A stretch of DNA of 55,686 nucleotides from NCBI GenBank assembly GCA_963575745.1, contig CAUYUJ010000142.1:62001-117686 (forward strand). The letters run 5' to 3'. A program made the position numbers and the translations under genes. This DNA comes from Prorocentrum cordatum (Eukaryota). Within the stretch, counting starts at the first letter, position 1. Each line of letters opens with the position of its first letter. A model generated the notes under the pieces. That model did not search any database and was not told where the DNA came from. It saw only the letters and a list, made by a program, of their open reading frames with translations. This document shows, piece by piece, positions 1,850-54,690 of this stretch.

Positions 1850-4800
1850 AGGCGCGTTCAGCTGTTGAACACAGAGGTCTGAACTCGGTCTGCTAGCCGT
1901 GCTAGGTCCGCAAACCTATTCGTTTTATTCGAGTCATCTTGACAGACGCTCTCGGTTTTCTGTACTTAACTCGAGCTACAGGACAGCTACAGAGCACGTA
2001 CAGAATCTGATTCAGAATCATCAGTGGCCGTTGTCTGTTGAATCCAGAGCTCTGAACTCGGTCTGCTGCCCGATCTAGAATGGCGAAACTATTGGTATTG
2101 GTCGAGTCATCTTGAGAGATGCTGTCGGTTCTCTGCACTTAACTCGGGTTGTAAGGGGACTGCAGGGCTGGTAATCACAGCAATCGATTCGGGTACCTCG
2201 CGCGTCCGCCTTTCGAATGCAGAGCTCCGAACTCTGTCTGCCGCCCGAACTAGTTCCGCGAAGTTATTCGCATTGTTCGAGTCATCCTGAGAGGTGCTGT
2301 CGGTTTCCTGCACTAACTCGAGCTGTAAGGGGCTGCAGGGCTGGTAATAACAGAAATCGATTCAGAGACATCAGACGCGTCCGCCTGTCGTATGCAGAGG
2401 TCTGAACTCGGTATGATACTCGAGCTACGTTTGCCAAACTATTCGTATTGTTCGAGTCATCTTGAGAGGTGCTGTCGATTTACGCACGTAATGGGAACCG
2501 GCGGTAAACCGTCAACCAGGTTACCGCCGGCGCCCTCGTAGAGCTCTTCTTGCACACAGCGCTCCTCAGTAAGCATCAAGGAAGCGTCCAGGGCAAGACC
2601 TCAGAAACTCGAAAAATCACATTTTTCTGTTTTTGTCCAACGTCGGTTCCTCCAAGTCAACTAATACTAAATCTGGCTCTAGAGAGCTGAGATTCTCAGG
2701 GAACAAAGTTTATATCCCAATGCTCGGAGTCAAAAACTGCTTTCTTAAAATGAATTGCCAAATATCTTTCAAATCTTAGCTAAACCGGCCAAAAGTTATC
2801 ACATCTTCTTTTCTGGTCGGGTCGACCAACTGGGCGCCGGCGGCAAACCGTCAACCTTCGTTACCGCCGGGGGGCTCGGAGAGCTTCCTGACAACATAAT
2901 GTCGAAAAAAATTACACTAAAAAATATTTTTTTCAGCCCAAGCAAGTTCAGACCTATCCGTAACAGCCGAACGCCCCAGATGCTTCTGGATTGTCTTCTG
3001 TACGAGCTCTGTAGCTCTCCTACAGCCCGAGTTACGTGCGTAAATCGAGAGCACCTCTCAAGATGACTCGAACAATACGAATAGTTTGGAAAACCTAGCT
3101 CGAGTATCAGACCGAGTTCAGACCTCTGCATGTGACAGGCGGACGCGTCTGATATCTCCGAATCGATTCCTGTGATTACCAGCCCTGCAGCCCCCCTACA
3201 GCCCGAGTTAAGTGCAGGAAACCGACAGCACCTCTCAGGATGACTCGAACAATACGAATAGTTTTGCGGACCTAGTTCGGGCAGCAGACAGAGTTCAGAG
3301 ATCTGGATTCGAAAGGCGGACACACCTGATGTCTCCGAATCGATTCCAGTCATTGCCAGCCATGCAGCCCCCCTAAAGCCCCAGTTAAGTGCAGAGAACC
3401 GACAGCATCTCTCAAGATGACTCAAACAATACGAATATTTTCGCGATTCTAGATCGGGCAGCAGACCGAGTTCAGAGCTCTGATTTCAACAGACAACGGC
3501 CACTGATGATTCTGAATCAGATTCTGTACGTATCAGCTCTGTAGCTGTTATATAGCTCGAGTTGAGTAAAGAAAATCCAGAGCGTCTGTCAAGATGACTC
3601 GAATAATACGAATAGGTTTGCGGACCTAGCTCGGCAGGCAGACCGAGTTCAGACCTCTGGGTTCAACAGGCGAACGCGCCTGATCATTCTGAATCGATTA
3701 GCTGTGCTTACCAGCTCTGTAGCTGTCCTAACGCTCGAGTTATTTCAAGAACACCGACAGCGCGTGACAAGATGACCCGAAACGGACGATCCCGCCGCAG
3801 TGCTTTTTGGCAGTAAAAGGTACCCGATCGAGCTGAGGTCAAGATGGCGAGCGGGAATAAGATCGAATATCACGGGAAAAAATACTAGAGCTCTAACGAA
3901 TTGTTGAATTTCGAGAACAAAATTTTCAACCGACCAAAAGTCACCAAAATGTCCGTCGATATTTTTCTTGCCGACTAGCTCTCGAGCGCCCCGGAATTAC
4001 TCTTCAGCTTCCAGCAACAACTGGGAACCGGCGGTAAACCGTCAACCAGGTCACCGCCGGGCCCCTCGTAGAGCTCTTCCCTCGCACGGCGCTCTCCAGT
4101 GCACATCTAGGAAGAGTCTGCAGCAAAACTCAAAAAACTCGAAAAAACACGTTTTCATATTTCTATCAAAAGACGGTTCCGCCAAGTGTTTGGATAGTAA
4201 TACTGCGCCTACGGACCTCAGAATTCACTGGCGGACGCGAAGAAACCCACTACAGGTGCGGAAAATACCGGTTCTCAAAACGAATGTTCAAATCTCTCAG
4301 AAAGATCGTCCAACCGACCCAAAGTTCGCACATTGTCCGTCGGGGCCGGGTCGGCCAACTGAGCGCCGGCGGTAAACCGTCAACCTTTGTTACCGCCGGG
4401 GACTCGTAGAGCTTCCTGACAACATATAATGTCGAGAAAAATTACACAGAAAAATAGTTTTCAGCCCAAGCAATTTCAAACCTCTCGGATGCAACAGCCG
4501 AGCCCCCGATGCTTCTGGATTGTCTTCTGTACGAGCTCTGTAGCTCTTCTACAGCCCGAGTTACGTGCGTAAATCGACAGCACCTCTCAAGATGACTCGA
4601 ACAATGCGAATAGTTTGGCAAACCTAGTATCAGACTGAGTTCAGACCTCTGCATGCGACAGGCGGACGCGTCTGATGTCTCTGAATCGATTCCAGTGACT
4701 ACCAGCCATGCAGCCCCCCCCCCCTACAGCCCGAGTTAAGTGCAGAGAACCGACAGCATCTCTGAACTCGAAGACTACGAATAGTTACGCGATTCTAGTT

Positions 4801-5888: not shown

Positions 5889-6442
5889 TACCTCGTAGAG
5901 CTCTTCGGCAAGATGAGTTTAGAGGAATTCGGGCGCAGGGTGGAGCTAGTTGGCCGACCCGATCTTAAGAGACAATGTGGTAACTTTGGGTCGGTTTTGC
6001 AATCTTGGTGCAAAATTTTGAAGTTCGTTTTCGGAACCGGTATTTTTCTCACCTGTAGTGGGTTGTGCCGCGTCTGCCAGTGAAATTCTCAGGTCCGTAG
6101 CTGCAATATTACTATCGAAAGACTTGAGGGAACCGTCGGCAGTTTCCCGCATCTTCACACGCGTTGACAGTTTTCTGTCCTTCTCAAGATTTAGGAGAGG
6201 TATAGAGCTGCTACTTACAGAAACCGATTCAGAATCATCAGGCGCGTTTGTCTGTTCGATCGAGAGGTCTGAACTCGATCTGCTACTCGAGCTAGATGCT
6301 CGAAACTGTTCGTATTATACGAGTGATCTGAGAGCTGTCGGTTCCCTAGCTCACGCGTGAGAAAGCTTCCCCATGTGTTCCAAGCAGCGTCGTGCAGACA
6401 AGAGCTCTACGAGGCTTCTGGCGGTAACCTGGTTGACGGTTT
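5889..6442 (+). mobile_element. Non-autonomous HLE2-like copy whose 3' hairpin is broken by the LINE insertion
   Basis: Starts TACCTCGTAGAGCTCTTC. The 3' inverted repeat AAGAGCTCTACGAGG is at 6400-6414, followed by the half-hairpin GCGGTAACCTGGTTGACGGTTT, then LINE sequence. Confidence 0.75.
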
Positions 6443-6634
6443 TTTGCGGACTTCGCGGTCGACTGCGCAGGCTTTCCAGCCTAGTCGGAAGCAAGGAGCG
6501 GGCGCATCGGGAGTAGGCGGAAGCCTCACCGATCCAAACGATCAGAGGCGAAAGCCAACTCTTATTAGGAGGATGAGAGGTCAAGCACACACACACGACA
6601 AACAAAGGCATGGCGTGAGTGAGCACAATCAAAA

Positions 6635-9600
6635 TCACATCATATCCTGTCCGAAATACGCTTGTACAACCCGCGGCAAGATCATAATCGCATGCTCAAC
6701 GGCCGAGACCTCGGCATCAGTCACTGTTGAAGTTGGATCAATCGAGAGTGCCGCACTGTACACCTCCGTCCAAATAATCTCATGGCTGAGTGGCTGCCTT
6801 GAGAGCCTCGATACCCGTCCAACATCTATCCAGCACCCGACTCCCACGCCGTCGCAAGAGACACCACCATCGAATCCAGCTCCGATGGCACAAACGCGAA
6901 ACACCTGTTGTAACTGAGGGGCGTGAAGCCCTATCCTATCTCGAATCACTGGTGGCCCGACACGAGCCGTATGAGTGAGTACATCTGCACGCGTGTTCCA
7001 TTCCCTATATGTGTGGTCTACAATCCCCCTCCCATGACAGGCAGGCCTAATTCCATACCTTTGACACATGTTGTCGAGTTGGTTTATCATTCTGTTGATC
7101 CTATCCTGATAGGTACGATTAAGCACCCTCCAGACACCCTGCAGCCAAGACGCCACCAGAAGGCTGTCCCCAGAAATGTGCACAGGGATCCCAAATGAGT
7201 CGAGGTCGTACTCAACCTCCTTCATATTTTGTAACGCAATACGTTTGGCCAGTTTGTCGTTGAACGCCGCAGTGCCCTCTTGGGCCCCATAGGTGCGCAG
7301 GTCGTTTTGTGTGCTGGTAAGTACCTCCTGCGGGGCCCCACCTGTTGTACCGTACCCTTTTCTTTTCTGAAAATAACTCAACATCGTCCGTGTACACATG
7401 TGCTCGCAGAACTGAACATACGCAGCATCTGTCGGCACAAAGGACCCCCACCATTTGAGTCCGTAGAATTCGCAGAAAGAAAATAGCCAGCATCTCTGGC
7501 CGACAGCTCGACCTGAACTAACGTGTCTCCTTTTTAGCTGCGAAGCCTCTTGGAAGTGAAACATACCCCGCAAGCACTCAGACGCATCCGTCCTGAGTCT
7601 GTCCGACAGTGGGCCATACGCAACCGTAGTCATGTGGTGATCTCTCCACGTACGTTGCGTCGAAGATATTTCCTCATGAGAAGCAGTACACAACATAGAA
7701 ATGAAATCAGCAGCATCCTTAGCGGAGTTCCACACCATACGAAGAAATCGCTGCACCAAACTCGCAAATCCATAAGATCGAAATTGCTCTCTGGCCTCGT
7801 GGTACCGTCGTCGGTTCCAGTCCGCCATAGTCTCCTCCTCTCTCCTCGGCCGTCGAAACATTCGGCACAAACACCATCCCTCGAAGGCATTGAGCACGTG
7901 CAGCGAGGAAGTATCAGCAGTACATGTCTCTAGACAACACAACGCCATACTCTGCACCTTGTATTGATAACGACAAAACTTATCACGAACAGCTACCGCT
8001 CTGTTACGAAAGAAATTCGACTGTCCAATGAAATAAGCACGAGCCTCCTTGATGCGATATTCCACATCAGGATGAGCGGGCACTAAGTAGGTGGAGAAAA
8101 TCTCATGACCCAATACTTTCATTCTGCAAACTCGTCGAAGTCTGAAGTCCTGATATCTCGAGCACGCAGGTATACACAAATCCTCGCTGGTAAGTGTATG
8201 TCCGTCACCGTCCACTTTCGCATTTTCCCCACATGTCATGTACAACAGGCTGCTATCCTTCCATCTCATCCCCCAGTCATGTAGTGGTAGTGTTAGATCG
8301 TGCATCATCTGAGCCAACACAGTTGAGGAGGCAGAGACAAGGTAGCAGTTGTCCGCCCACACAAAGTGGTTCACTATTGTCCGTCGCTCATACTCACCAC
8401 AGACGCCCTCCAGCACATACCCCACTCATCTACTGTCCCAATCCCGAAATATAGGTCCCCACATGGCACATATGATAAGATTAAAGAGAAGAGGCCCCTC
8501 AGGGCCGCCCGTCCGTATGCAGACGTCCCAGTTGATGTCGTGAATGGCCATACCCTCGACAACTAACGACCCCGTAGTGCAAACCAGCGGTGATAGCAAA
8601 GCATACTGGAGATAGGCAGGAATATTGGCATGGCACATAGCTCGCTTGGCGTTTTGAAGGCTGCAGTGGTCGAACGCTTGTTTGATATCGGCGTTAGCGA
8701 TATGGACCGTCTGATCCTTTCCCCAGATGTCCCCATGTTGAGCCAGAGCCTTGAGGGCCCCCACAATTTCCACCGTCTTACGTCCCTCCTGGAAGCCGTA
8801 GATGCCCAGGGGTCCCATGAGGCCAGCCCGAGACACAAATTGTTCGACCAAGATCACCACACAAGCAGAATACCAACGGCTGAGACTGTTTTGCAGACAG
8901 AGGTACCGTGCATCTGTCAGCGATGTCAAGCTCGGCAGCTTGGGCATGAAGGCGATCAAAATTTGCCTCCAGTCCTGCGGACACTGCCGTGCCAAGCGAA
9001 ATATCTCATCAAACATCCGAGCAACGCCACGCAAAGTCGCCCACGGCAATGCCTTGAGTATTTCACAAGGCAGCCTGTCGGGGCCAGTGGCACGCTTGGA
9101 CTTGAGACGTGACCGTGCCTGGCATACCACCGCCATTGTCAGTCCCTCAGTGCAGTACCCGTCACATAGGTTCTGTTGTGCATCCCTCCTCAACTCCTCC
9201 AACATCGCCATATCCCGTCCTCTGACCTCCTCCGAAGTATACCTCTGTCTGGTATGTGCTCTGATCTCCTCCACCCACTCCTCCCTGTCCTCAGATATCC
9301 GTCCCTGCACAATGAGGTGCTTGATACCATGACGCTCTTTGCGCCTGGAGGCAGGAGAGGTCCACGCGGCCAACGCCGCACGATACTCCCTCCGCAGTCC
9401 GTTGGCACGTCTGCGCAAGCTGGGCACATCCACTGACGCTGGCAGAGGCTTCCGTCGCAAAATCTCCTGGCAGGCCGTGAGCCCTGCAGGCCTAATTGGC
9501 GGTAGTCCCCGTCCCGTGGTGGCAGTCGCGAATTTGATTTCCCCCTGCTCAGTACAGGCCCGAATAGTGGTCGACACAAGGTCCCCTGGAGAACAAGTAG

Positions 9601-9790
9601 TACTGGCATCTCCCAAGACCCGATCGATTTCCTTTCGCGCCATATTGAGGTCCCCCCAATTCACCGTCTTATAACCTACCAAACTCTTTTCACGAACTGC
9701 CGTCGGGATACTACGTTTGACCAGCTCAGCGCCTGTGTCACTAAAAGTCCCCTGAAGCAGGCCATGGTCGCTGAGACGACTACGATTTGT
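6635..9790 (-). pseudogene. ORF2 reverse transcriptase + RNase H region (one in-frame TGA at 8426-8428)
   Basis: RT motifs: KRATGPD, PQDWR...FMPK, YGFQEGR, ADIKQAFD, IRTGGPEGPLLFN, WADN, MKVLG. RNase H motifs: GDSLLV, HTYREWNTRAD, FDGG, DAEVSA. Confidence 0.92.
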
Positions 9791-10605
9791 CTTCCCCCAT
9801 TACTCGTGATATTTTCGACCGTCATCTCATCTATCACCCACGTCCTGGGAACAAAAATGCAATCAAGAACCTTCTTACACGTCCCCCACCGAGATACTCC
9901 GTAGCTCTCCCATGTGTGTAGTCGTCGTGGCAAGAACGACTTGGCAGCCTTCATCCCCAGGCGCCCTAGAAAACACAGAACACGCTCGCGCAACTGTTGT
10001 CGTACGTCCCTCCTCACCCGCTGTGCACCACCCTCCTCGCAAGTCCTCCTCTCCTCCTTGGTAGCACTTCCCACCGCCTCATAGACAGTCCCAGTGCGCG
10101 AGCACTGCAGCTGAGTTGATGGGGATAGCTCAACGTTGGCATCGAGCAGCACAGAGACAGTCGCTCCCTTCCAGCGGCTGCGCAGAGTGAGAATAACTGA
10201 CTCGAGCGCGTCCAACACCACGCACTGCACATCTACGGCGTTCTCGACGCCGGGGTCGGGAAGATACGCAGAGGCAACTATCACAGGGGCACTTCCACTA
10301 CCAAAGACCACCACACAGAACCGTTCATATTGACATATTGATTCACGCACACACGTACTCCACTCTTTGTTAAATAATAACCCACACTTACCGTCACAAC
10401 TCACACGATATGAAAGGCCACACCGTCTGATATATGCATCGAATTTGCCTCCAAAAAGATTCTGGCATTCCTGAACACCCCAGATGCAATCTCGCATTGA
10501 AAGGCACCTCAGAATCTCATTCCCCTTGAAATTGGCCGACCCCGCCCGATTGAGGTTCCAGCTACCCAGTCGGATCCCCTTGAACGGTGTTCGGCGTCGT
10601 CGTCG
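9760..10605 (-). pseudogene. ORF2 apurinic-like (APE/EEP) endonuclease, two frameshifts
   Basis: GSWNLN (~10550-10565, in the ORF1 frame), then GVQE, SAYLP, LLDAN, HTW and LDCIF in ORF 9676..10497, then LSDH in the RT frame near 9765. Frameshifts near 10500 and 9795. Confidence 0.85.
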
Positions 10606-12100
10606 TCACACCCTCCTGTTGACTTCCGTCTCGATATCAGCCTTCGTCTTAGTAAACGCAGGTATGAGTTGATGCAACCTGTCGACAGTCTCACTCGACA
10701 CCTCCCATGTCGCCCGCGTCGCGGTAAACTCGGCCAGAAGCATTGGCCTCGGAGCGGCCGTCGTGGGCACTGTCCATATAGTCGATTTGGGCGGCCCCAT
10801 TTCCCCTCGCACAGCAATAACCTCGATACCAATCTGTGTACACATGCTCCGAATAGTGCCGCAGAATCTCCCCACCGCCGGAACGTGGCCCCTCTTCCAC
10901 TCTGGGCACTCGACACTGACTTTGATCGACTCAGGGTTGACAACCTGCTTCATATTCTCAATGAGGCACTGTGGTGCAGCGATCTGGATTCCTGGAGGAG
11001 GCGCGGGGCGTTTAGCAGGGGGTACCGTCACAAGGTCGATGCACCGTTTGACCCTCCAAATAATATCCCTGTCGGTCCCTGGCTTGAATTTGATTTTGGC
11101 CGATCCGAACATGTAACGGCCAGCGTTAATGCGCTCAGTACCGTCAACACACACGTGCACACGATCATCCTCCGAAAGACAATGATTTGTAATGTTATCT
11201 ATGAGCACCTTCACATCCTCCCACATGGGCATCTCCTGAGACCTCCTATCCCTGTCACTCCAGTTGGTGACCCATCCCTTGAGTTCGACATACGTTGGAG
11301 AGAAGTAGGTGGTTCCAGGAGCCTGGTATCTTCCCGTCCTGGTATTATCAGGCCTCGTCGAAGCGTCACTGGCAACTGAACCCGCACGAACCTGTCCCTG
11401 GAGTCCCTGGACGATCGTCTCGAGTCGATTATGTTTAGTCTCAAGCCCCTGAACGCTCGTCTCCAGATTAGAAATCGTAACACCCTGCTTCTGGACCTGG
11501 GCCTGAACGTTGTCGATTGTGGCCCCCTGAACTCCTATGGCATCCTGGATCCTTTCAGTGTTATCATCCATCTTGTGCATCATCTGCAATAGTAAACTCT
11601 GCATACCATCCTTCCCCTCCAAGGCGGCCTTCCTTTCAGCAAGAACCTCCTCACGATTACGCTTCACAGGGGGGGCTCCGCCATCCACCGTCATGTTATC
11701 TGCATGCTCGGGCATTGTGTCAATACACTGAGGTCCGTATCCCCACGAGTGCAACCACTGTCGTGTCACCGTCCGTTCACAGAGAGGTACAACAGATTCA
11801 CTATCTGGAGTGGAGTCGGCAGTATTCAATCTTCCGTCCAATGGGTAGTCACCTGGGGTCTTCTCAATATCCTGAAGTTGTCTTTTACGAGAAGCTCTCT
11901 CGACAGCAGTATCTGGCTTCTGACCGTAATCCTGTGAGTACTGCAAATATGGCACTGTCGGTGATATATCCTCCAGCTGAAACCTTCTCGCGAGAACCGA
12001 AAAGTCGTATCCGTCCGTCTTCACACACGTACAACAAAAGACAACAAGCGCAGCAAACAAAGGAAGCAGCCTAGCTGACCTCGAAGATGCCGTACCCGTC
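10606..12100 (-). CDS. LINE ORF1 (coiled-coil, putative nucleic-acid chaperone); start uncertain (first ATG 11715, frame open upstream)
   Basis: Long ORF directly upstream of APE with a heptad region (VQAQVQKQGVTISNLETSVQGLETKHNRLETIVQGL). Homologous to 1-556. Confidence 0.8.
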
Positions 12101-12147
12101 GATGGCAGCGATGGCTGCCGCGCCGCCTCCCCGCGACGCCGACACCC

Positions 12148-12201
12148 CCTGAGCCCCAGTGGGATCCTGGAGCCCTGGAGCCGAGATGTCTTGAGCCGGA
12201 A
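12148..12201 (-). other. Relict spliced-leader-like motifs at the LINE 5' end
   Basis: The - strand reads TTCCGGCTCAAG, CATCTCGGCTCCAG, GGCTCCAG and TGGGGCTCAGG in succession. Confidence 0.5.
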
Positions 12202-13171
12202 GCCTCGTTCCCGCCCCCAAATTATGTTCGCTCTCTGGGTTTTGGACGCTACGAAGTTCCGTCGCGCTGGAGAGCTAGTTGGCAAGAAAAATCTCGACGG
12301 AAGTTTTGGTGACTTTTGGTCGGTTGAACATTTGGTTCTCGAAATTTGACCATTCGTTAGAGCTCTAGTATTTTTCCCCGTGATATTCGATCTTATTCTC
12401 GCTCGCCATCTTGATCTCAGCTCGATCGAGTGAATATTACTATCGAAAAGCACAGTGGCGGGATCGGCCGTTTCGAGTCATCTTCATACGGGCTGACGGT
12501 TTTCTGAACATAACTCGAGCTTTAGTACAGCTAACAGAGCGCGTAAGCACAGCTAATTAATGTAGAATGATTAGGCGCGTTCGCCTGTCGAATCTAGGTC
12601 TCAACTCGGTCCGTTACCCGAGCTAGGTCCGCAAACCTATTCGTATTATTCGAGTGATCTTGGCAGGAACTCTCGGCATTCTGTACTTAACTCGAGCTGT
12701 AGAACAGCTACAGAGCTGATATCCACAGAAACTAATTGAGAATCATCTGTTACGTTTGTCTGTCGAATCCAGAGCTCTAAACTCGGTCTGCTGCCCGATC
12801 TAGAATGGCGAAATTATTCGTATTGGTCGAGTCATCTTGAGAAGTGCTCTCGGTTTTCTTCACTCAACTCGCGCTGGGGGCTACAGTGCTTCCGGATACA
12901 GAAACTGATTTGAACACATCATGCGCATCTGTCTGTCGAACCCAGAGCTCCGAACTCGGCCTGCTGCTCGAACTAGGTCCGCGAAACTATTCTATTATTT
13001 GAGTCATCCTGAGAGGTGCTGTCAGTTTTCTGCACGTAACTTCGGCTGTAGGGGGGCTGCAGGGCTGGTAATGACAGGAGTTGATCTGCAGACGCGTCTG
13101 CCTGTCGCATTCAGAGGTCAAAACATATTCACTATGAGTCAAAATGTTGGTAGGTGCTGTCAGTTTTCTCA

Positions 13172-13571: not shown

Positions 13572-15062
13572 CTGGGCGCCGGCGGTAAACCGTCAACCTT
13601 TGTTACCGCCGGGGGACTCGTAGAGCTTTCTGACAGTATATAGTGCGGAAAAATCAAAAGAATTTCAGCCCGAGCCAGACCTCTCAAGATGACTCTGGCA
13701 CAAAAAAAAAAAAAACAGTTTGGAACCCAGCTCGAGTGTCAAACCGAGTTCAGACTTCTAAATGCGACAGGCGGACGCGTCTGATGTCTGTGAATCGACT
13801 CCTGTGATAACCAGCCCTGCAGCCCCACTACAGCCCGAGTGAAGTGCAGAAACCGAGAGCAGCTCTCAGGATGACTCGAACAACACAGTTTCGCAGACCT
13901 AATTCGGGCAGCAGACCGAGTTCCGAGCTCTGGATTCGACAGACGGACGCGCCTGATGTCTCCAAATCGATATCTGTGACCAGCAGCATTGTAGCCCTAC
14001 CCCAGCACGAGTTAAGTGCAGAAAACCAAGAGCACTTCTCAAGATGACTCGAACAGTACGAATAGCTTCGCAGACCTAGCTCGGGCAGCAGGCCGAGTTC
14101 AGAGCTCTCGATTGAACAGACGAACGCGCCTGATGATTCCCAATGGATTTCTGTGACTACAGCTCGAGTTAAGTACGAAAAACCGAGAGCGTCTGCTATG
14201 ATGACTCAAATAATACGAATAGGTTACGAATAGGTTTGCGGAGCTAGCTCGGCTAGCAGACCGAGTTCAGACCTCTGGATTCAACAGGCGAACGCGCCTA
14301 ATCATTCTGAATCGATTAGCTGTGCTTACCAGATCTGTATCTGTCCTGAAGCTCGAGTTATCTTGAAAAAACCGACAGCGCGTATCAAGATGTCGAAACA
14401 GCCGATTCCGCCGGAGTGCTTTTTGGCAGTAAAAGGTACCCGATCGAGCTCAGATTAAGATGGCGAGCGGGAATAAAGATCGAATATCACGGGAAAAAAT
14501 ATTAGAGCTGAAACGAACTGGCGCCGGCGGTGAACCGTCAACCTGGTCACCGCCGGGAACCTCGTAGAGCTCCTCTCACTGGTAAGAGTGCAGAGAATCG
14601 ACACAGAATCAAAAAAAATAGATTTTTCGGAAATCTTCAAATTCGATTTTTTTCAATGTTCATATTCGCTCGGTTCCTGGAAGTGAACTCATGCGAAAAT
14701 GCATCGAGAGAGCTGAGCTGCTGTCAGAGAGGAGTTTATATGCCAATGCTCGGCGTAAAAATCTGCTTTCTCAAAATAAATGGTCAAATATATTTCAAAT
14801 TTTCGCAAAACCACCCAAAAGTTATCACATTGTCCGCCTCGGCCGGCTGGGCCAACTAGCTCCACCCCGCGCCGGAATTCCTGTAGCTCATCGATGCCGA
14901 AGAGCTCTACGAGGTATTGTTGAATTTCGAGAACAAAATTTTCAACTGACCAAAAGTCACCAAAAGGTCCGTCGAGATTCTTCTTGCCAACTAGCTCTCC
15001 AGCGCCCCGGAATTACTCTCAAGCTCCCAGCAATAACTTGCCAAGGGAAGCTCTACGAGTTA
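13572..15062 (-). mobile_element. Complete ~1.09-kb non-autonomous HLE2 (long subfamily) carrying a nested 399-bp copy
   Basis: Left subterminal ACTCGTAGAGCTT pairs with right-end AAGCTCTACGAGT(TA). About four 176-bp units lie inside. Confidence 0.78.
14518..14916 (-). mobile_element. Complete 399-bp non-autonomous HLE2 inserted without TSD
   Basis: Flanks aaacgaa | ttgttgaattt rejoin to the empty site seen at about 3896, 5467 and 17662. 14-bp ATIR ACCTCGTAGAGCTC. Confidence 0.88.
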
Positions 15063-16765: not shown

Positions 16766-17767
16766 CTGGGCGCCGGCGGTAAACCGTCAACCTTGGTTAC
16801 CGCCGGGAGACTCGTAGAGCTTCCTAGCTCGACTTAAGTTGAGAAAACCGACAGCACCTACCAACATTCCGACTCATAGTGAATAGTTTTTGACCTCTCA
16901 ATGCGACAGGCGGACGCGTCTGATGTCTGCGAATCGACTACTGTCATTACCAGCCCTCCAGCCCCCCTACAGCCCGAGTTAAGTGCAGAAAACCGACAGC
17001 ACCTCTCAGGATCAATCGAACAATACGAATAGTTTCGCGGACCTAGTTCGGGCAGCAGACAGAGTTCAGAGCTCTGGATTCGACAGGCGAACGCGCCTGA
17101 TGTCTTAAAATCAGTTCCTGGGACCATTAGCACTGTAGCCCCCCCTCAGCGCGAGTTGAGTGAAGAAAACCGAGATCACTTCTCAAAATGACTCGACTAA
17201 TCCGAATAGTTTCGCGATTCTAGATCGGGCAGCAGACCGAGCTCAGAGCTCTGGATTCGACAGACAAACGTAACTGATGATTCTGAATCGGTGTCTGTAA
17301 ATATTAGCTCTGTAGCTGTCCTACAGCTCGAGTTAAGTACAGAAAACCGAGAGTTTCTGTCAAGATGACTCGACTAATACGAATAGGTTTGCAGACCTAG
17401 CTCGGCTAACAGACCGAGTTCAGATCTCTGGATTCAACAGGCGAGCGCGCCTCATTCTACATCGATTAGCTGTGCTTAACAGCTCTGTAGCTGTCCTAAA
17501 GCTCGAGTTATGTTGGAAAAACCGTCAGCGCGTATTCAGATGACTCAAAACGGCCGATCCCGCCAGAGTGCTTTTCGATAGTAATATTCACCCGATCGAG
17601 CTGAGATCAAGATGGCGAGCGGGAATAAGATCGAATATCACGGGAAAAAATACTAGAGCTCAAACGAATTGTTGAATTCCGAGAACAAAATTTTCAAACG
17701 ACCAAAAGTCACCAAAAGTTCCGTCGAGATTTGTCTTGCCAACTAGCTCTCCAGCGCGCTGGAATTA

Positions 17768-18746: not shown

Positions 18747-19127
18747 CAGACACACACACACGCACCAGGCACACGAACGCAATCGCGAACACCCACAGAA
18801 AACACGCACTGAGAACAGAGACAGTCACACAAGCAAACGCACACACACACACACACACGCACAAACGAACGCACTTACAACCACACCCACGTCACACGAA
18901 CGAACACTTACAAACACACGCACGAACCCCCCCCCCGACCCCCTCCCGGCGCTCCGGAGGGGGGAGGCACCGCCCCATCTTGGGGCCGGCCCTCCCCCCA
19001 CTCAAACCACTCCGCCCTCGCGGGGCGCTGGAGGAAGGGGGAGGGGGAGCGCGGGGTTGCGAGCGCCGCGCGCGCACACACACACGCACTGACACACACA
19101 CGCACACACACACGCATACACACGCGC

Positions 19128-19188
<61 letters not shown>

Positions 19189-19219
19189 GACGGACAGACA
19201 GACAGACCGACAGACAGAC

Positions 19220-19292
<73 letters not shown>

Positions 19293-19317
19293 CACACACG
19301 CACAGACAGCCAGACAC

Positions 19318-19356
<39 letters not shown>

Positions 19357-22300
19357 CACAGACAGACAGACACACAGGCATACAGACACACAGACACACA
19401 GACACACAGACACACAGACACACGGACACACAGACACACAGGCAACCAGACACACAGACACACAGACACACAGACACACAGACACACAGACAGACAGACA
19501 CACAGACAGACAGACACACACACACAGACACACAAACACAGAGACCCACAGACACACAGACACACAGACACACAGACACGGACACACGGACACACAGACA
19601 ACACACACACAGACAGACAGACACACGGCCATACAGACACAAAAGACACACGGCCATACAGACACACAGACACAGGCACACAGACACACAGACACACAGA
19701 CACACAGACACAAAGACACACAGACACACAGACACACGGACACATAGACACACAGACACACAGACACACAGACACACAGAAACACAGACACGTAGACACA
19801 CAGACACACAGACATACAGACACACAAATACACAGACACACAGGCACACAGACACTCAAGCACACAGACACACAGAGCACCAGATTCACAGACACACAGA
19901 CACACAGACACACAGACACACGGACACACAGACACGCAGACACACAGACACGCAGACACGCAGACACACCAACACACAGACACGCAGACACAAGCACACA
20001 CAGACACGCAGGCACACAGGCACACAGGCACACAGACACACAGACACCCAGACAGACAGACACACAGACACACAGACAAACAAATACACAGACACACTGA
20101 CACACTGACACACTGACACACAGACGCACAAAAACACGGACACACAGACACACAGACACATAGACACACAGATACATAGACACACAGACACACTGACTGG
20201 CAGACAGAGCCCCCCCCACCCCCACCCACCACACCCCCTTCCGGCGCTCCGGAGGGGGGAGGCACCGCCCCATTTTGGGGCCGGCCCTCCCTCCACTCCA
20301 ACCACTCCGCCCTCGCGGAGCGCCCGAGAAAGGGGAAGGGCGGGGGGGGGCCAGCACGGGGCTGCCAGCGCCGCGCGCGCACGCACACACACACACACAC
20401 ACATACACACACACTGACACACACACACACACAAACACGCACGCATACACACACACACACACACGCAAATACACGCGCACAGACACACAGACAGACAGAC
20501 ACACACACAGACGCACAGAAAGACAACACAGACAGATCCACAGGCAGACAGACACACAGACACACAGACAGACGGACACGCAGACACACGGACACACAGA
20601 CACGCAGACACAAGGATACACAGACACACAGCCAACCAGTCACACAGACACACAGACATCCAGACACGCAGATACTCACACACACAAACACGCGGACACA
20701 CAAACACACAGCCATGCAGACACACAGACACGGACACACGGACACAAAAGACACACGGACATACAGACACACAAACCCAGACACACAGACACACAGACAC
20801 ACAGACACACAGACACACAAATGCACAGACACACAGACACACATACACACAGACACACGGACACACAGACACACAAACACACAGACACACAGGCACACAG
20901 ACACACGGACACACGGAACACAGACACCAACACACAGACACACAGACACACCAACACAAAAACACACAGACACACAGACACACAGACACACAGACACACA
21001 GACACACAGACACACAGACACACAGACACACAGACACACAGACACACGGACACGCGGCCACGCAGACACACAACCACACGGACACACACACGGACACACA
21101 GACACGCAAACACACAGACACACAGACACAGAAACAACCAGACACACAGATGCACAGACACACAGACACACAGACACACAGACACGCGGACACACTGACA
21201 GACTGACACCCAGGCACCAAGACACACAGACACACAGACACATAGACACACAGACACACTGACACACTGACACACTGACACACTGACACACAGAAACACA
21301 GACACACAGCCACACTGACACACGGACACACGGACACACAGACACACAGACACATAGGCCGCCAGACACACAGATACACAGACACAAAAACACACGGACA
21401 CAAAGACAGACAGACAAACACACACAGAGGAACAGGGACACACAGACACACAGACACACAGACACACAGAGAGACCCACAGACCCACAGACACACAGACG
21501 CACAGACAAGCGGACACTCAGACACACAGACACACAGACACACAGAAACACAGACACACAGAAAGACAGAAAGACAGAAACACAGCACACAGGCACACAG
21601 ACACACAGACACACAGACACACAGACACACAGACACACAGACACACAGACACACAGACACGCAGACACACAGACACACAGACATAAAGACACACAAATAC
21701 AAAGACACACAGACACACAGACACTCAAGCACACTGACACACAGATGCACAGACACACAGACACACAGACACTCAGACACACAGACACACAGAAACACAG
21801 ACACACAGACACACAGGCACACGCATACACGCACACAGACACACAGACACAAGGACACACCGACACGCAGGCACAAAGGCACACAGGCACACAGACACAC
21901 ACAGACAGACACACAGACACACACAAACGGATACACCGATACACTGACACACTGACACACAGACACACAGACGCAAAAAAAGAAACAGACACACAGACAC
22001 ACAGACACACAGACACACAGACACACAGAAATAGGGACACCCAGACACACAGACACACAGACACACAGACACACAGAGACACAGACACATTGACACACTG
22101 ACACACTGACACACAGAAACAAAGACACGCAGACACACAGAGACACAAACACACAGACACACAGACTCACAGACACACAGACACACAGACAAGGCAACAC
22201 AAACACACAGACACACAGGAAGACACGCAGACAGAAACACAGGCACACATACAAACAGACACACAGACACACTGACTCACAGACATACAGACACACAGAC

Positions 22301-24170
22301 ACACAGACACACAGACACACAGACACACATACAGACAGACAGACAGACAGACAGACATAGACACACGGACACAAAGACCCACAGATACACAAGCACACAA
22401 ACACACAGACACACGGACACACGGACACACGGACAAGCTCTCACACAGACAAACAGACATACGGCCATACAGACACAAAAGACACACGGACACACAGACA
22501 CACAGGCACACAGACACAGACACACAGGCACACAGACACACAGACACACAGACACACAGAGACACAGACACACAGACACACAGACACACAGACACACGGA
22601 CACATAGACACACAGACACACAGACACACAGACAAACAGACACACAGAAACACAGACACGGAGACACACAGACACACAGCCATACAGACACACAAATACA
22701 CAGACACACAGACACACAAACACTCAAGCACACAGACACACAGACACTCAAGCACACAGACACACAGAAACACAGACACATAGACACACGGACACACAGA
22801 CACGCAGACACACAGACACGCGGCTACGAAGGACACACAGACACGCAAGCACAAAGGCACACAGGCACACAGACACACAAACACCCAGACAGACAGACAC
22901 ACAGACACACAGACAAACAGATAAACAGACACACTGACACACTGACACACAGACACACAGACGCACAAAAACACAGACACACAGACACACAGACACACAG
23001 ACACACAGACAAACAGATACACAGACACACTGACACACTGACACACAGACACACAGACGCACAAAAACACAGACACACAGATACACAGACACACAGACAC
23101 ACAGACAGGCAGACAGAGCCCCCCCACCAACCACACCCCCTTCCAGCGCTCCGGAGGGGGGAGGCGCCGCCCCATTTTGGGGCCGGCCCTCCCTCCACTC
23201 CAACCACTCCGCCCTCGCGGAGCGCCCAGAAGGGGGGGGGGGGGGGCGGCAGCGCGGGGCTGCCAGCGCCGCGCGCGCACACACTCACACACTGACACGC
23301 ACACACGCACGCGCACACACACACACACGCAAATTCACGCGCACAAACAGACAGACAGACACACACACACACAGACGCACAGAAAGACAGACACACAGAC
23401 AGATCCACAAACAGAGAGACACACAGACACGCAGACACACACACACACAAAGACACGCAGACACAAGGATACACAGACACAGAGACAACCAGTCAGACAG
23501 ACACACAGAGACCCAGACACGCAGACACTCAGACACACAGACACACGAACACACAAACACACAGACATAGAAACACACAGACACGAGCACACGGACACAA
23601 GGACACAAAAGACACGGGCATACAGACACACAAACAAACAGACACAGAGACACACAGACACACAGACACACAGGCACACAGACACAAAGACACACAGACA
23701 CACATACACACAGACACGCGAACTCACAGACACACAGAAACACGGACACACAAACACACAGACACTCAGACACACAGACACACGGACACACGAACACACA
23801 GACACCTACACACAGACACACAGACACACCAACATAAAAACACACAGGACACACAGATTTTCAGACACACAGACACACAAAGACACATACACACAGACAC
23901 ACAGACACATGGTTACACGGACACGCTGACACACAGACACACAGACACACACACACGGACCCACAGACACGCAGACACACAGACACAGAGACATACAGAC
24001 ACACAAATACAAGGATAAACAGACACCAAGACACACAGACACATAGACACATAGACACACAGACACACTCGCACTCTGACACAGTGACACACTGACAAAC
24101 AGAAACACAGACACACAGACACACTGACACACGGACACACAGACACACAGGCAATCATACATACAGACAC

Positions 24171-24205
<35 letters not shown>

Positions 24206-25724
24206 CACAGACACACAGACACACAGGCATACAGACACACAGACACACAGACACACAGACACACAGACACACGGACACACAGACACACAGGCAACCAGAC
24301 ACACAGACACACAGACACAAAGCCACACAGACACACAGACAGACAGACACACAGACAGACAGACACACACACACACAGACACACAAACACAGAGACCCAC
24401 AGACACACATAAACACAGACACACAGACACACGGACACACAGGCACACAGACAACACACACACAGACAGACAGACAGACACACGGCCATACAGACACAAA
24501 CACACGGACACACAGACACACAGACACACAGACACAGGCAAACAGACACACAGACACACAGACAAACAGACACAAAGACACACAGACACACAGACACACG
24601 GACACATAGACACACAGACACACAGACACACAGACACACAGAAACACAGACACACCAACACACAGACACGCAGACACAAGGACACACAGACACGCAGGCA
24701 CACAGACACACAGGCACACAGACACACAGACACCCAGACAGACAGACACACAGACACACAGACAAACAGATACACAGACACACAGACACGCAAAAAACAC
24801 ATACGCACAAAAACACAGACACACAAACACGGACACACAGACAACACACACACAGACAGACAGACAGACACACGGCCATACAGACACAAACACACGGACA
24901 CACAGACACACAGACACACAGACACAGGCACACAGACACACAGACACACAGACAAACAGACACAAAGACACACAGACACACAGACACACGGACACATAAA
25001 CACACAGACACACAGACACACGGACACATAAACACACAGACACACAGACACACAGACACACAGAAAAACAGACACGCAGACACACAGACACACAGACATA
25101 CAGACACCCAAATACACAGACACACAGACACCGACACTCAAGCACACAGACACACAGAGCACCAGATTCACAGACACACAGACACAAAGACACACAGACA
25201 CACGGACACACAGACACGCAGACACACAGACACGCAGACACGCAGACATACCAACACACAGACACGCAGACACAAGGACACACAGACACGCAGGCACAAA
25301 GGCACACGGGCACACAGACAAACAGACACCCAGACAGACAGACACACAGACACACAGACAAACAGATACACAGACACACTGACACACTGACACACTGACA
25401 CACATACGCACAAAAACACAGACACACAGACACACAGAAGCATACACACAGACACATAGACACACAGACACACTGACTGGCAGACAGAGCCCCCCCCCGA
25501 CCCACCACGCCCCCTTCCGGCGCTCCGGAGGGGTGAGGCACCGCCCCATTTTGGGGCCGGCCCTCCCTCCACGGACCAACCACTCCGCCCTCGCGGAGCG
25601 CACGAGAAAGGGAGAGGCGGGGGGGGGGCCAGCGCGGGGCTGCCAGCGCCGCGCGCGCACGCACACACACACACTGACACACACACACGCACGCACACAC
25701 ACACACACACGCAAATACACGCGC

Positions 25725-25763
<39 letters not shown>

Positions 25764-28700
25764 CACACACACAGACGCACAGAAAGACAACGCAGACAGA
25801 TCCACAGGCAGACAGACACACAGACACACAGACAGACGGACACGCAGACACACGGACACGCAGACACGCAGACACCAGGATACACAGACACACAGCCAAC
25901 CAGTCACACAGACACACAGACATCCAGACACGCAGATACTCAGACACACAGACACGCGGACACACAAACACACAGCCATGCAAAAAACACAGACACGGAC
26001 ACACGGACACAAAAGACACACGGACATACAGACACACAAAACCCAAACACACAGACACACAGACACACAGACACACAGACACAAAGACACACAGAAACAC
26101 AGACACACATACACACAGACACACGGACACACAGACACACAAACACACAGACACACAGGCACGCAGACACACGGACACACAGAACACAGACACCAACACA
26201 CAGACACACAAACACACCAACACAAAAACGCACAGACACACAGACACACAGACACACAGACACACAGACACACAGACAAACAGACACACGGACACGCGGT
26301 CACGCAGACACACAACCACACGGACACGCACACGGACACACAGACACGCAAACACACAGACACACAGACACAGAAACAACCAGACACACAGATGCACAGA
26401 CACACAGACACACAGACACACAGACACGCGGACACACTGACAGACTGACACCCAGACACCTAGACACACAGACACACAGACACATAGACACACAAACACA
26501 CTGACACACTGACACATTGACACACTGACACACAGAACACACAAACACACAGCCACACTGACACACGGACACACGGACACACAGACACACAGGCCACCAC
26601 ACACACAGATACACAGACACAAAAACACACGGGCACAAAGACAGGCAGACAAACACACACAGGCACAGGGACACACAGACACACAGACACACAGACACAC
26701 AAACACAGAGACCCACTGACCCACAGACACACAGACGCACAGACAAGCGGACGCTCAGACACACAGACACAAAGACACACAGACACACAGAAACACAGAC
26801 ACAGAAAGACAGAAAGACAGAAACACGGGCACACAGGCACACAGACACAAAGACACACAGACACACAGACACACAGACACACAGACACACAGACACACAG
26901 ACACACAGACACGCAGACACACGGACACACAGACGTACAGACACACAAATACAAAGACACACAGACACACAGACACTCAATCAAGCACACTGACACACGC
27001 AGCACCAGACACACAGACACACAGACACTCAGACACACAGACACACAGAAACACAAACACACAGACACACAGGCACACGCATACACTCACACAGACACAC
27101 AGACACAAGGACACACAGACACGCAGGCATTAAGGCACACAGGCACACAGAAACACAGACACACAGACACACAGACACACACAAACAAATACACCGACAC
27201 ACTGACACACAGACACACAGACGCAAAAAAGAAACAGACACACAGACACACAGACGCACAGACACACAAACACACAGAAACAGGGACACCCAGACACACA
27301 GACACAATGACACAAAGAAACACAGACACACAGAGACACAGACACAATGACACACTGACACACTGACACACAGAAACACAGACACGCAGACACACAGAGA
27401 CACAAACACACAGACACACAGACTCACAGACACATAGACACACAGACACGGCCTCACAAACACACAGACACACAGGAAGACACGCAGACAGAAACATAGG
27501 CACACATACAAACAGACACACAGACACACTGACTCACAGACACACAGACACACAGACACACAGACACACAGACACACCGACGCACATACAGACAGACAGA
27601 CAGACACACATAGACACACAGACACAAAGACCCACAGACACACAGACACACAGACACACAGACACACGGACACAAAGACACACGGACAAACTCTCACACA
27701 GACAGACAGACATACGGCCATAGAGACACACAGACACACGGACAAACAGACACACAGACCCACAGACCCACAGACACACAGACACAGAGACACACGGACA
27801 CATAGACACACAGACACACAGACACACAGACAAACAGACACACAGAAACACAGACACGGAGACACACAGACACACAGCCATACAGACACACAAATACACA
27901 GACACACAAACACACAGACACTCAATCACACTGACACACAGACACTCAAGCACACAGACACACAGACACACAGACACATAGACACACGGACACACAGACA
28001 CGCAGACACACAGACACGCGGCCACGCAGACACACCCACACACAGACACGCAGGCACAAGGACACACAGACACGCAGGCACAAAGGCACACAGGCACACA
28101 GACACACAAACACCCAGACAGACAAACACACAGACACACAGACAAACAGATACACAGACACACTGACACACTGACACACAGACACACAGACGCACAAAAA
28201 CACGGACACACAGATACACAGACACACAGACACACAGACAGGCAGACAGAGCCCCCCCACCCACCACACCCCCTTCCAGCGCTCCGGAGGGGGGAGGCGC
28301 CGCCCCATTTGGGGGCCGGCCCTCCCTCCACTCCAACCACTCCGCCCTCGCGGACCGCCCAGAAGGGGGGGGGGGGCGGCAGCGCGGGGCTGCCAGCGCC
28401 GCGCGCGCACACACTCACACACTGACACGCACACACGCACGCGCACACACACACGCAAATTCACGCGCACAAACAGACAGACAGACACACAGACACGCAG
28501 GCACAAAGGCACACAGGCACACAGACACACAAACACCCAGACAGACAGACAGACACACAGACACACAGACAAACAGATACACAGACACACTGACACACTG
28601 ACACACAGACACACAGACGCACAAAAACACAGACCACACAGAACACACAGACACTCAGGACACACAGACAAACCAGATACACATACACATGGACACCACT

Positions 28701-31700
28701 GACACACAGGACACACCGGACACACAAAAAAAACACAGAAACACAGCTACACAGACACACAGGACACACAGAACAGCAGACAGAGCCCCCCACCCACCAC
28801 ACCCCCTTCCAGCGCTCCGGAGGGGGGAGGCGCCGCCCCATTTTGGGGCCGGCCCTCCCTCCACTCCAACCACTCCGCCCTCGCGGAGCGCCCGGCAGGG
28901 GGAGGGGGGGCGGCAACGCGGGGCTGCCAGCGCCGCGCGCGCACACACTCACACACTGACACGCACACGCACACGCGCACACACACACGCAAATTCACGC
29001 GCACAGACAGACAGACACACACACACAGACGCACAGAAAGACAGACTCACAGACAGATCCACAAACAGAGAGACACACAGACACGCAGACACACACACAC
29101 ACAAAAACACTCAGACACAAGGATGCACAGACACACAGACAACCAGTCACACAGACACATAGACACCCAGACACGCAGACACTCAGACACACAGACACAC
29201 GAACACACAAACACACAGACATACAAACACACAGACACGACCACACGGACACACGGACACAAAAAACACGGACGTACAGACACACAGACAAACAGACACA
29301 GAGACACACAGACAGACAGATACACAGACACACAGACATACAGACACACATACACACAGACACACGAACTCACAGACACACAGAAACACAGACACACAAA
29401 CACTCAGACACTCAAACACACAGACACACGGACACACGAACACACAGACACCAGCACACAGACACACGGACACACCAACACAAAAACACACAGGACTCAC
29501 AGACATTCAGACACACAGACACACAGACACACATACACACAGACACACAGACACACACACACACATGTTTACACGGACACGCTGACACACAGACACACAG
29601 ACACACACACGGGCCCACAGACACACAGACGCACAGACACACAGACACATGGGCACACGGACACGCTGACACACAGACACACGGACACACACACGGACCC
29701 ACAGAAACGCAGACACACAGACACAGAGACATACAGACACACAAATACAAGGATACACAGAAACACAGACACACAGACACACGGACACACTGACAGACGG
29801 ACACCCAAACACCCAGACACACAGACACACAGACACACAGACACACAGGCAACCAGACATACAGATACACAGACACACAGACACGCGGACACAAAGAAAG
29901 GCAGAAAAAACACACACAGGCACAGGGACACACAGACACACAAACACACAGACACACAAACACACAGACAAAAAGACACGCATACACGCAAAAACTTGGA
30001 CATTCAGACACACAGACACACAGACAGACAGACACACAGACACACAGAAAGACGGAAAGACAGAAACACAAGCACACAGACACACAGACACAGAGACACA
30101 CATACACACAAACACACGGAAGCACAGACACACAGACACACAGACACACAGACACACAGAAACACAGACACGCAGACACACAGACACACAGAGATACAGA
30201 CACACAAATACACAGACACACAGACACACAGACATACAAGCACACTGACACACGCAGCACCAGACACACAGACACGCAGACACTCAGACACACAGACACA
30301 CAGGCACACAGACGCACAGAGACGCAGTCACACGCAGACACGCAAAAACACCAACACACAGACACGCAGACACAAGGACACACAGACACGCAGGCACACA
30401 GACACACAGGCACACAGACACACAGACAGACAGACACACAGACACACAGACAAACAGATACACAAACACACTGACACACTGACACACAGACGCCCAAAAA
30501 AAATACAGACACACAGACACACAGACACACAGACACACTGTCACACTGAAGACACACAGACAGACAGACACACACACACAGACACACAGATAAATAGACA
30601 CACAGACACACAGACACTCAGACACACAGAGACACAGACACACTGACACACTGACACACAGAAACACAGGGCACAAAGACACGCCGACACACAGACACAC
30701 AGACACACGGACGCACGGACACACAGACAAACACGCACAGACAGAAGCACAGACACCAGACACAGACGGCCATACAAAAACAAAAGACACAGGGACACAC
30801 AGACACACAGACACACAGACACAGACACACAGACACACAGACACACAGACACACAGACATACAGACACACAGACACACGGACACATAGACACATCGACAC
30901 AAAGACACACAGACAAACAGACACGCAGAAACACAGACACGCAGACGCTCCGGAGGGGGGAGGCACCGCCCCAATCTAGGGCGGGCCCTCCCTCCACTCC
31001 AACCACTCCGCCCTCGCGGAGCGCCCGGGAAAGGGGGGGGGGGCAGCGCGGGGATGCCAGCGCCACGCGCACACACACACACTGACACACACACACACAC
31101 ACACACACGCGCACACACACACGCAAATACACGCGCACAGACACACAGACAGACACCCACACACACACGCACAGAAAGACAGACACACAGACAGATCCAC
31201 AGACAGACAGACACACAGACATACTGACATACAGAAACGCAGACACACAGACACAAAGACGCGCAGACACAAGGATACACAGAGACACAGACAACCAGTC
31301 ACACAGACACACAGACACACAGACACCCAGACACGCAGACACTCAGACACACAGACACACAGACACACAAGCACACAGACATACAGACACACAGACACGG
31401 ACACACGGACACACGGACACAAAAGACACACGGACATACAGACACACAGACACACCGACACACAGACAGACAGACACACACAAATACACACAGACACACG
31501 GACACACAGACACACAGACGCACAGACACACAGACACACAGACACACAGACACACAGACACACGGACACACGGACACACAGACACCAACACACAGACACA
31601 CAGACACACCAACACAGAAACACACAGACACACAGACACACAGACACACAGACACACACAGACACACAGACAGACAGACACACGGACACACGGACACACG

Positions 31701-46529: not shown

Positions 46530-46537
46530 AAAAAAAA

Positions 46538-46569
<32 letters not shown>

Positions 46570-46580
46570 AAAAAAAGACG

Positions 46581-46618
<38 letters not shown>

Positions 46619-46674
46619 AAAAAAAAAAAATATAAAAAAAAAGAAAAGAAAAAGAATAAAAAAAATAAAAAAAA

Positions 46675-46745
<71 letters not shown>

Positions 46746-46748
46746 AAA
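46530..46748 (+). repeat. Poly(A)-rich tract interrupting the coding region
   Basis: About 220 nt, almost pure A. Confidence 0.95.

Positions 46749-53640: not shown

Positions 53641-54690
<1,050 letters not shown>

Follow-up and report, generated by a model that had tools for sequence, protein, structure and literature searches.

This locus raises the question of whether the two halves of a ribonuclease H (RNase H) can be exchanged along the chain of a natural protein. It lies in a 55,686-nucleotide stretch of Prorocentrum cordatum DNA (GenBank assembly GCA_963575745.1, contig CAUYUJ010000142.1, positions 62,001 to 117,686 of the forward strand), which is called the window here and in whose coordinates all positions are given. 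The minus strand of the window carries an element that resembles the long interspersed nuclear elements (LINEs); its second open reading frame (ORF2) is nearly full-length and ends with the RNase H part, upstream of which it is interrupted by a single frameshift and a single TGA stop codon. A sequence-only reading of this DNA had proposed that this C-terminal RNase H is a natural circular permutation, and the profile comparisons, doubled-template alignment, predicted fold and family of relatives described below support the proposal. The domain is very probably an archaeal-type (RVT_3-like) type-1 RNase H in which the canonical C-terminal half precedes the N-terminal half.

The frame at 6635-8425 encodes 596 amino acids (aa; protein P0001). 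Along this chain the RNase H motifs run in the order GDS, YRE.N..AD, FDGG, T.AE and then the stop codon. They are found as GDS (aa 419-421) in VHISGDS, which begins at aa 415 (7183-7163); YREWNTRAD (aa 473-481) in HTYREWNTRAD, from aa 471 (7015-6983); FDGG (aa 518-521) in AGFDGG, from aa 516 (6880-6863); and DAE (aa 570-572) in TVTDAEVS, from aa 567 (6727-6704). The sequence-only reading had given this order and these coordinates, and every motif was found in the translation where it had been placed. Canonical enzymes have the element order β1-β2-β3-αA-β4-αB-αD-β5-αE, which this domain does not follow; here β4 through αE (half 1) comes before β1 through αA (half 2). Because its linear element order differs, the domain is a permuted derivative and not a regular member of the archaeal-type RNase H (aRNH)/RVT_3 group, and its new chain termini lie where canonical enzymes have the αA-β4 loop. 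Residues D519, E572, D420 and D481 align to the four canonical RNase H acids in the PDB profile alignments, in hhalign and in the doubled-template alignment (the codons of these and other features are collected in Table 1).

The homology of half 1 is clear. Against a canonical RNase H profile of 79 sequences (the bacterial seed P0156 plus 78 loci from many phyla), hhalign aligns it to positions 65-132 with a probability of 98.7% and E 2.1e-16. When a family profile (alignment A1, 51 sequences) was compared with all PDB sequences, the six matches at E ≤ 10 were all type-1 RNases H: 4e19_A (2.8e-7), 3u3g_D (2e-6), 3aly_A (7e-6), 2ehg_A (8e-6), 4h8k_A (8e-5) and 3hst_B (6e-3). In all five of the printed alignments GDS..RAD lies on the C-terminal half of the chain and FDGG..AE on the N-terminal half, and R474 aligns with the Arg of PRE.N..AD in 3u3g and 3aly. 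At E ≤ 0.1 the Pfam RVT_3 profile matches 28 of 48 relatives, in each case with its positions 57-123 on the GDS..RAD stretch; its curated cut-off is passed in three of the 48 (P0102, 30.2 bits; P0076, 25.9; P0061, 24.2), and then by half the profile only. A tblastn comparison of half 1 with plasmids gave chance-level matches only (E 1-10), and no RVT_3 match was found in the E. coli K-12 record.

Half 2 is, by sequence, the weaker leg of the homology case. Its alignment to the 79-sequence profile covers positions 4-60 (55 columns) with score 25.0 and P 4.6e-4, and it is in register, with D519 on the aspartate of DG and E572 on the glutamate of AE. Column shuffles of half 2 (200 of them) scored 8.9 on average (standard deviation 1.8, maximum 16.9), none reaching 25, and the reversed alignment scored 9.8. 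In addition, positions 6-56 of Pfam RNase_H match the second half of one relative, P0100 (E 0.038). The classical test for circular permutation is alignment to a doubled template, and a doubled canonical profile gave a single alignment that passes from the C-half into the N-half, with query residues 22-194 on positions 65-194 (128 columns) and the linker as a 19-residue insertion; its score of 104.0 compares with 88.0 for the C-half alone.

AlphaFold2 (AF2), run on A1 for 207 residues, predicts one domain with a mean predicted local distance difference test (pLDDT) of 95.1 and a predicted template modelling score (pTM) of 0.89; block pLDDT is 91-98, including across the junction. The predicted helices (H) and strands (E) are, in model numbering, H2-11, E24-30, H33-40, H48-68, E70-72, E80-82, H89-100, E104-107, H114-119, E120-134, E137-150, E162-173 and H179-206, which in the canonical scheme read β4-αB-αD-β5-αE-linker-β1-β2-β3-αA. 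The acids stand at their canonical places in these elements, D420 at the end of β4, D481 in αE, D519 near the end of β1 and E572 at the start of αA; the five-stranded sheet would presumably have the usual RNase H order (3-2-1-4-5), with the four acids clustered. The helix DKLAKRIALQ, just before β4, tethers the domain to the remainder of ORF2. In a second model, of aa 178-596, the RNase H unit has pLDDT above 90 in most blocks, and the 235 residues upstream of it are helices only, at low confidence. The nearest clusters of ESM features are those of RNase_H and RVT_3 (score 0.92), which is a lead only.

The permuted order is a property of a family. When 1.84 billion representative sequences were scanned in full by HMMER with aa 340-596 as query, 121 clusters reached E ≤ 1e-3, and 46 of these reached E ≤ 1e-10. 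The relatives include ORF2 proteins of 1299-1455 aa (P0013, P0023, P0062) with the domain at the very end, fragments of 678 and 688 aa (P0005, P0024) that likewise end with it, and, from the cluster of P0005, the full-length protein P0143 (1279 aa). Protein P0004, which shares 52% identity with P0001 across 421 aa, stops at the same residue, and the same C-terminal end is found in P0152 and P0147. Species names among the relatives include Prorocentrum cordatum and Polarella glacialis, in records that leave the protein itself unnamed or uncharacterised. A transcriptome collection assigns four fragments that are 84-93% identical to the window protein (P0006, P0019, P0148, P0154) to the green alga Pyramimonas sp., whereas the other relatives with a species name come from dinoflagellates; the label could reflect culture contamination or a broader range of hosts.

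In a motif scan the order of the four motifs was the same in all relatives that cover them. When 153 distinct sequences were aligned with hmmalign, 70 spanned all four acidic columns and 68 of these read D-D-D-E; the two exceptions, P0108 and P0153, are both altered at the GDS aspartate. Column by column, the conserved residue is present in 110/118 sequences for D420, 126/127 for D481, 110/111 for D519, 89/90 for E572, 124/126 for R474 and 126/126 for N477. The tail past the catalytic Glu is short; its median length is 27 aa, and in 84 of 90 relatives it does not exceed 45 aa. A canonical RNase H hidden Markov model (HMM) run on the 153 sequences matched the C-half in 135 and the N-half in three, all downstream, and detected a canonical N-half upstream of GDS in none of the 153. 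The sequence-only reading had held that all four acids are retained, that partial RNase H matches should appear in swapped order with no canonical N-terminal half upstream of GDS, that the halves should fold together as one domain, and that other copies should share the permuted order, and these expectations agree with what was found.

Several observations nevertheless weigh against a permuted RNase H. The hhalign probability of half 2 against the 79-sequence profile is just 33%; against a canonical profile of low diversity (120 near-identical sequences, effective number of sequences (Neff) 1.9) it is 0.15%, that is, no signal; and the stretches of half 2 that HMMER places on PDB chains are, taken singly, not significant (i-E 24 to 1200). 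The window protein itself has no Pfam match and, by single-sequence phmmer, no PDB match, and the copy bears a frameshift and a stop codon upstream of the domain. Foldseek found no match of the model to the PDB at E ≤ 0.001, and the RNase H chains returned by VIA-align (3u3g_D, Z 4.5; 4e19_A, Z 4.0; 3aly_B, Z 3.9) cover model residues 13-104 only. Structure searches that depend on element order do not recognise the domain as a whole; this is the behavior expected of a permutant, but it is no positive proof of one. We give no credence to the top Foldseek rows (PelC and others, TM 0.25), and the best VIA-align rows (Z 5.0-5.2) are unrelated α/β proteins (RlmH-like, CinA), which we read as a generic arrangement.

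Given the frameshift and stop codon of this copy, the motif order might be taken for an artefact of a decayed or misassembled sequence, a rearrangement private to the locus. That reading is already refuted: the same order occurs in 121 representative clusters from independent assemblies, full-length ORF2s included, and in proteins labelled Prorocentrum cordatum and Polarella glacialis, and four other runs contain near-identical contigs that span the domain. It is quite improbable that only half 1 derives from RNase H, as a truncated relic, and that the FDGG..AE part is an unrelated module of three strands and a helix with its DG and AE there by chance. The in-register alignment over 55 columns (P 4.6e-4) that no shuffle equalled, the 16 score units gained on the doubled template after the cost of the linker, the near invariance of D519 and E572, and the AF2 packing of both parts as one domain (pTM 0.89) all speak for a common origin, and an RNase H C-terminal half alone would have no stable sheet; what such an unrelated module has in its favor is that half 2 is not significant by itself in HMMER, is missed with the shallow canonical profile, and has its N-half identity confirmed by no structure search.

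The two other alternatives accept the RNase H origin of both halves. In one of them the halves would pair between two ORF2 molecules, so that the order serves as a dimerisation device. We regard such a domain-swapped dimer as rather less probable still than an unrelated module; nothing favors it directly, apart from an 18-residue linker that could in principle permit swapping, and single-chain AF2 is confident across the junction (pLDDT 91-98, pTM 0.89) in the domain and behaves the same in the longer construct. A more serious alternative, unlikely but to be kept in mind, is that the fold is permuted as described and the domain no longer cuts, having become a hybrid- or nucleic acid-binding or structural module like the degenerate "connection" domain of retroviral reverse transcriptase (RT). 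Half 2 has diverged far from canonical sequences, and, according to PMC5348765, many LINEs manage without an RNase H of their own. On the other hand, the four acids and the aRNH-type Arg are kept at 93-99% across relatives that are just 20-55% identical; such conservation is what an active site should show, and degenerate connection domains lack it.

In the preferred reading the domain is a natural circular permutant of an archaeal-type enzyme. The domain's best and only PDB profile matches are aRNH proteins (RVT_3, PF13456; Sulfolobus tokodaii RNase HI, 3aly/2ehg; Halobacterium RNase H1, 4e19; LC11-RNase H1, 3u3g), with which it shares GDS..v..l.G.w, RE.N..AD with its Arg, the DG and AE motifs and all four acids. 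It differs from them in an 11-residue insertion before β5, a 14-residue insertion between β2 and β3, and a longer helix αA that forms the end of the protein. Arg in place of the E. coli-type His before the last Asp marks the archaeal type (PMC5348765). The aRNH domains described there in LINE ORF2s are of the same subtype and occupy the same place, the very end of ORF2; in contrast to the present family they have the canonical order, are detected by ordinary aRNH profiles and belong to another host group. A CCHC motif is reported upstream of aRNH in those ORF2s, whereas the consensus of our alignment A3 has no conserved Cys/His motif. The words "permut", "dinoflagellate" and "Alveolata" do not occur in the text of PMC5348765.

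Natural circular permutants that arose by duplication and trimming are known in other folds, among them DNA methyltransferases, saposin/swaposin and lectins. The present domain has in common with these that the old termini are linked, the new termini lie in a surface loop and the active-site residues are kept; the fold differs. The author of the sequence-only reading knew of no description of such an arrangement in non-LTR (long terminal repeat) elements, and none of a permuted RNase H catalytic core was found in a full-text search of main texts, few of them from subscription journals; the main text of a 2014 survey of the RNase H-like superfamily has no word starting with "permut". The two closest papers use "permuted" for label shuffling and for the RT thumb.

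The permutation would most likely have arisen, as the sequence-only reading suggested, when an RNase H was duplicated in tandem and the outer halves were then lost. An HMM search for a second GDS..RAD half among the long-tailed relatives (P0021, P0099, P0065, P0085, P0117 and P0100) found no duplication intermediate, and their tails past αA are low-complexity or unrelated. Protein P0021 has a GDS-like stretch about 30 aa past its AE motif, about where canonical β4 would follow αA; judged by position and motif, and without HMM support, it might be a relic of a lost second half. The helix before β4 was considered as a relic of the αA of a first copy and has no detectable likeness to canonical αA (score 5.6, P 0.65).

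Catalytic activity is likely, at a lower confidence than the permutation itself. Residues D420, D481, D519 and E572 would then assemble as the usual two-metal site. In target-primed reverse transcription the neighboring RT makes an RNA:DNA hybrid, and it is the RNA strand of this hybrid that the domain would cut. The RNA template would be degraded after first-strand synthesis, as is supposed for aRNH in the L1 elements of plants and oomycetes.

The remainder of the element is that of a LINE of dinoflagellate type. Its whole ORF2 is colinear with the 1279-aa relative P0143 in tblastn (aa 7-232 on 10485-9793 and aa 232-1278 on 9796-6650). The frame of P0001 is continuous with a frame at 8426-9799 except for the TGA at 8426-8428, and the upstream piece of ORF2 lies in another frame at 9676-10605. 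The RT of the window copy matches Pfam RVT_1 at E 1.2e-4, which is under the cut-off; relatives P0024, P0013 and P0023 are over it. A profile of seven full-length relatives matches human LINE-1 ORF2p (8uw3_A, E 2.2e-11) and, more weakly, R2 RT (8gh6_A, E 0.0019) in the PDB, so the closest solved ORF2 structure is of the L1 type, and because of these matches the label LINE ORF2 is right: by sequence the protein is a non-LTR ORF2 with an RT of the non-LTR type. Family assignment of the N-terminal endonuclease-like part comes from one weak Exo_endo_phos match, in relative P0023 (E 0.05, Pfam); the window piece has no Pfam match, and the PDB search with the profile of full-length relatives returned no endonuclease chain. 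The stop-to-stop frame of the ORF1-like region reaches 12477, and its first ~94 codons, which match other copies of a satellite, are probably not coding.

Table 1. Features of the LINE-like element, from the end of ORF2 upstream (aa numbers refer to P0001)
Feature	Position	Strand	Basis or remark
Stop codon of ORF2	6635..6637	-	24 codons past catalytic Glu
Very probable circularly permuted RNase H domain, C-terminal end of ORF2	6638..7192 (aa 412-596, 185 aa)	-	Translation, profiles, AF2
Half 2 (β1 FDGG, β2, β3, long αA TDAE)	6638..6901 (aa 509-596)	-	N-terminal half of canonical RNase H
Codon E572 (DAE)	6710..6712	-	Equivalent to E. coli E48
Codon D519 (FDGG)	6869..6871	-	Equivalent to E. coli D10
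Linker, old C-terminus (end of αE) to old N-terminus (start of β1)	6902..6955 (aa 491-508, 18 residues)	-	AF2: short strand E104-107 and short helix H114-119
Half 1 (β4 GDS, αB, αD, β5, αE YREWNTRAD)	6956..7195 (aa 411-490)	-	C-terminal half of canonical RNase H
Codon D481 (RAD)	6983..6985	-	Equivalent to E. coli D134
Codon R474 (YRE)	7004..7006	-	Archaeal-type Arg, in place of E. coli-type His
Codon D420 (GDS)	7166..7168	-	Equivalent to E. coli D70
Conserved helix DKLAKRIALQ before β4	7226..7255 (aa 391-400)	-	AF2 H2-11; consensus LAKRLA in alignment A3
All-helical region between RT and RNase H, without β strands	7256..7894 (aa 178-389)	-	AF2 model (aa 178-596) with helices alone through residue 235, at pLDDT 35-77
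RT part of ORF2	8348..9799	-	RVT_1 stretch 8462-8806; FVWADN motif 8348-8365
In-frame TGA inside RT	8426..8428	-	Sense codon in all covering contigs of three other runs
Frame change, endonuclease-like part (frame -1) to RT part (frame -3)	9793..9796	-	tblastn of P0143
N-terminal endonuclease-like part of ORF2	9793..10485	-	Colinear with P0143 aa 7-232
ORF1-like frame upstream of ORF2	10606..12190 (limits approximate)	-	Weak coiled-coil-like Pfam matches only

Because of the upstream frameshift and TGA, this copy of the element is probably dead, with its RNase H part still intact. At position 8428 every covering contig of three other runs (1, 21 and 1 contigs) has another letter, which gives a sense codon, so the TGA is private to this copy. 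Near-identical sequence is found in many public runs, poly-A RNA libraries among them, and contigs from four other runs cover the RNase H domain with near identity; these libraries may contain DNA, so no claim of transcription is made. Among the 40 best-supported of 151 differences, a biased subset, 21 of the 37 that fall in the frame are synonymous (9 of 15 in the RNase H part), and none of the 40 touches a catalytic codon; the synonymous bias is only a hint of purifying selection. In the 3′ untranslated region, contigs of three runs carry 23 other letters in place of the 116 bases at 6489-6606. Further points of divergence, each in several contigs, lie at about 6438-6442 and at 6628. This pattern suggests variant 3′ ends and an end of the element near 6440.

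Arrays of a ~172-177-bp satellite lie at 1872-2481, 3001-3781, 12473-12876, 13743-14157 and 16962-17452 and flank the LINE on both sides, so the LINE appears to lie within the satellite. Farther along the window, a 14.5-kb array of the 8-mer ACACACAG (about 1800 copies) occupies 19076-33536 and largely explains the strong strand asymmetry of the window (19572 C vs 12508 G; 15533 A vs 8073 T). Two long A-rich runs (43173-43360 and 46530-46748), a (TCG)n array of about 228 copies (53642-54341) and, at the right end of the window, GC-rich tandem repeats of 81-99 bp (54692-55686) complete the repeats seen.

It is possible, a little short of probable, that this domain is the first case of natural circular permutation in the RNase H catalytic core, that it is the working RNase H of a widespread dinoflagellate LINE lineage, and that it is kept because it sets a new geometry between RT and RNase H. 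The RNase H fold is among the most studied nuclease folds and is a reference for protein folding and for the evolution of retroelements. A permuted form that has been conserved in nature with its active site intact would show the fold to be tolerant of natural re-wiring, and it would offer folding and engineering studies a construct that nature has already made. Elements of this kind would at present be annotated as being without RNase H, since ordinary profiles recognise half of the domain at most, and domain annotation of dinoflagellate repeats, with Pfam blind to this protein, would under-count the enzyme. The family would add a LINE lineage that uses aRNH beyond plants and oomycetes. If the permutation is true, the move of the chain ends from β1 and αE to the αA-β4 loop would alter the site and manner of the nuclease's attachment to the RT, and the new tether point would matter for the way in which RT and nuclease work together in target-primed reverse transcription.

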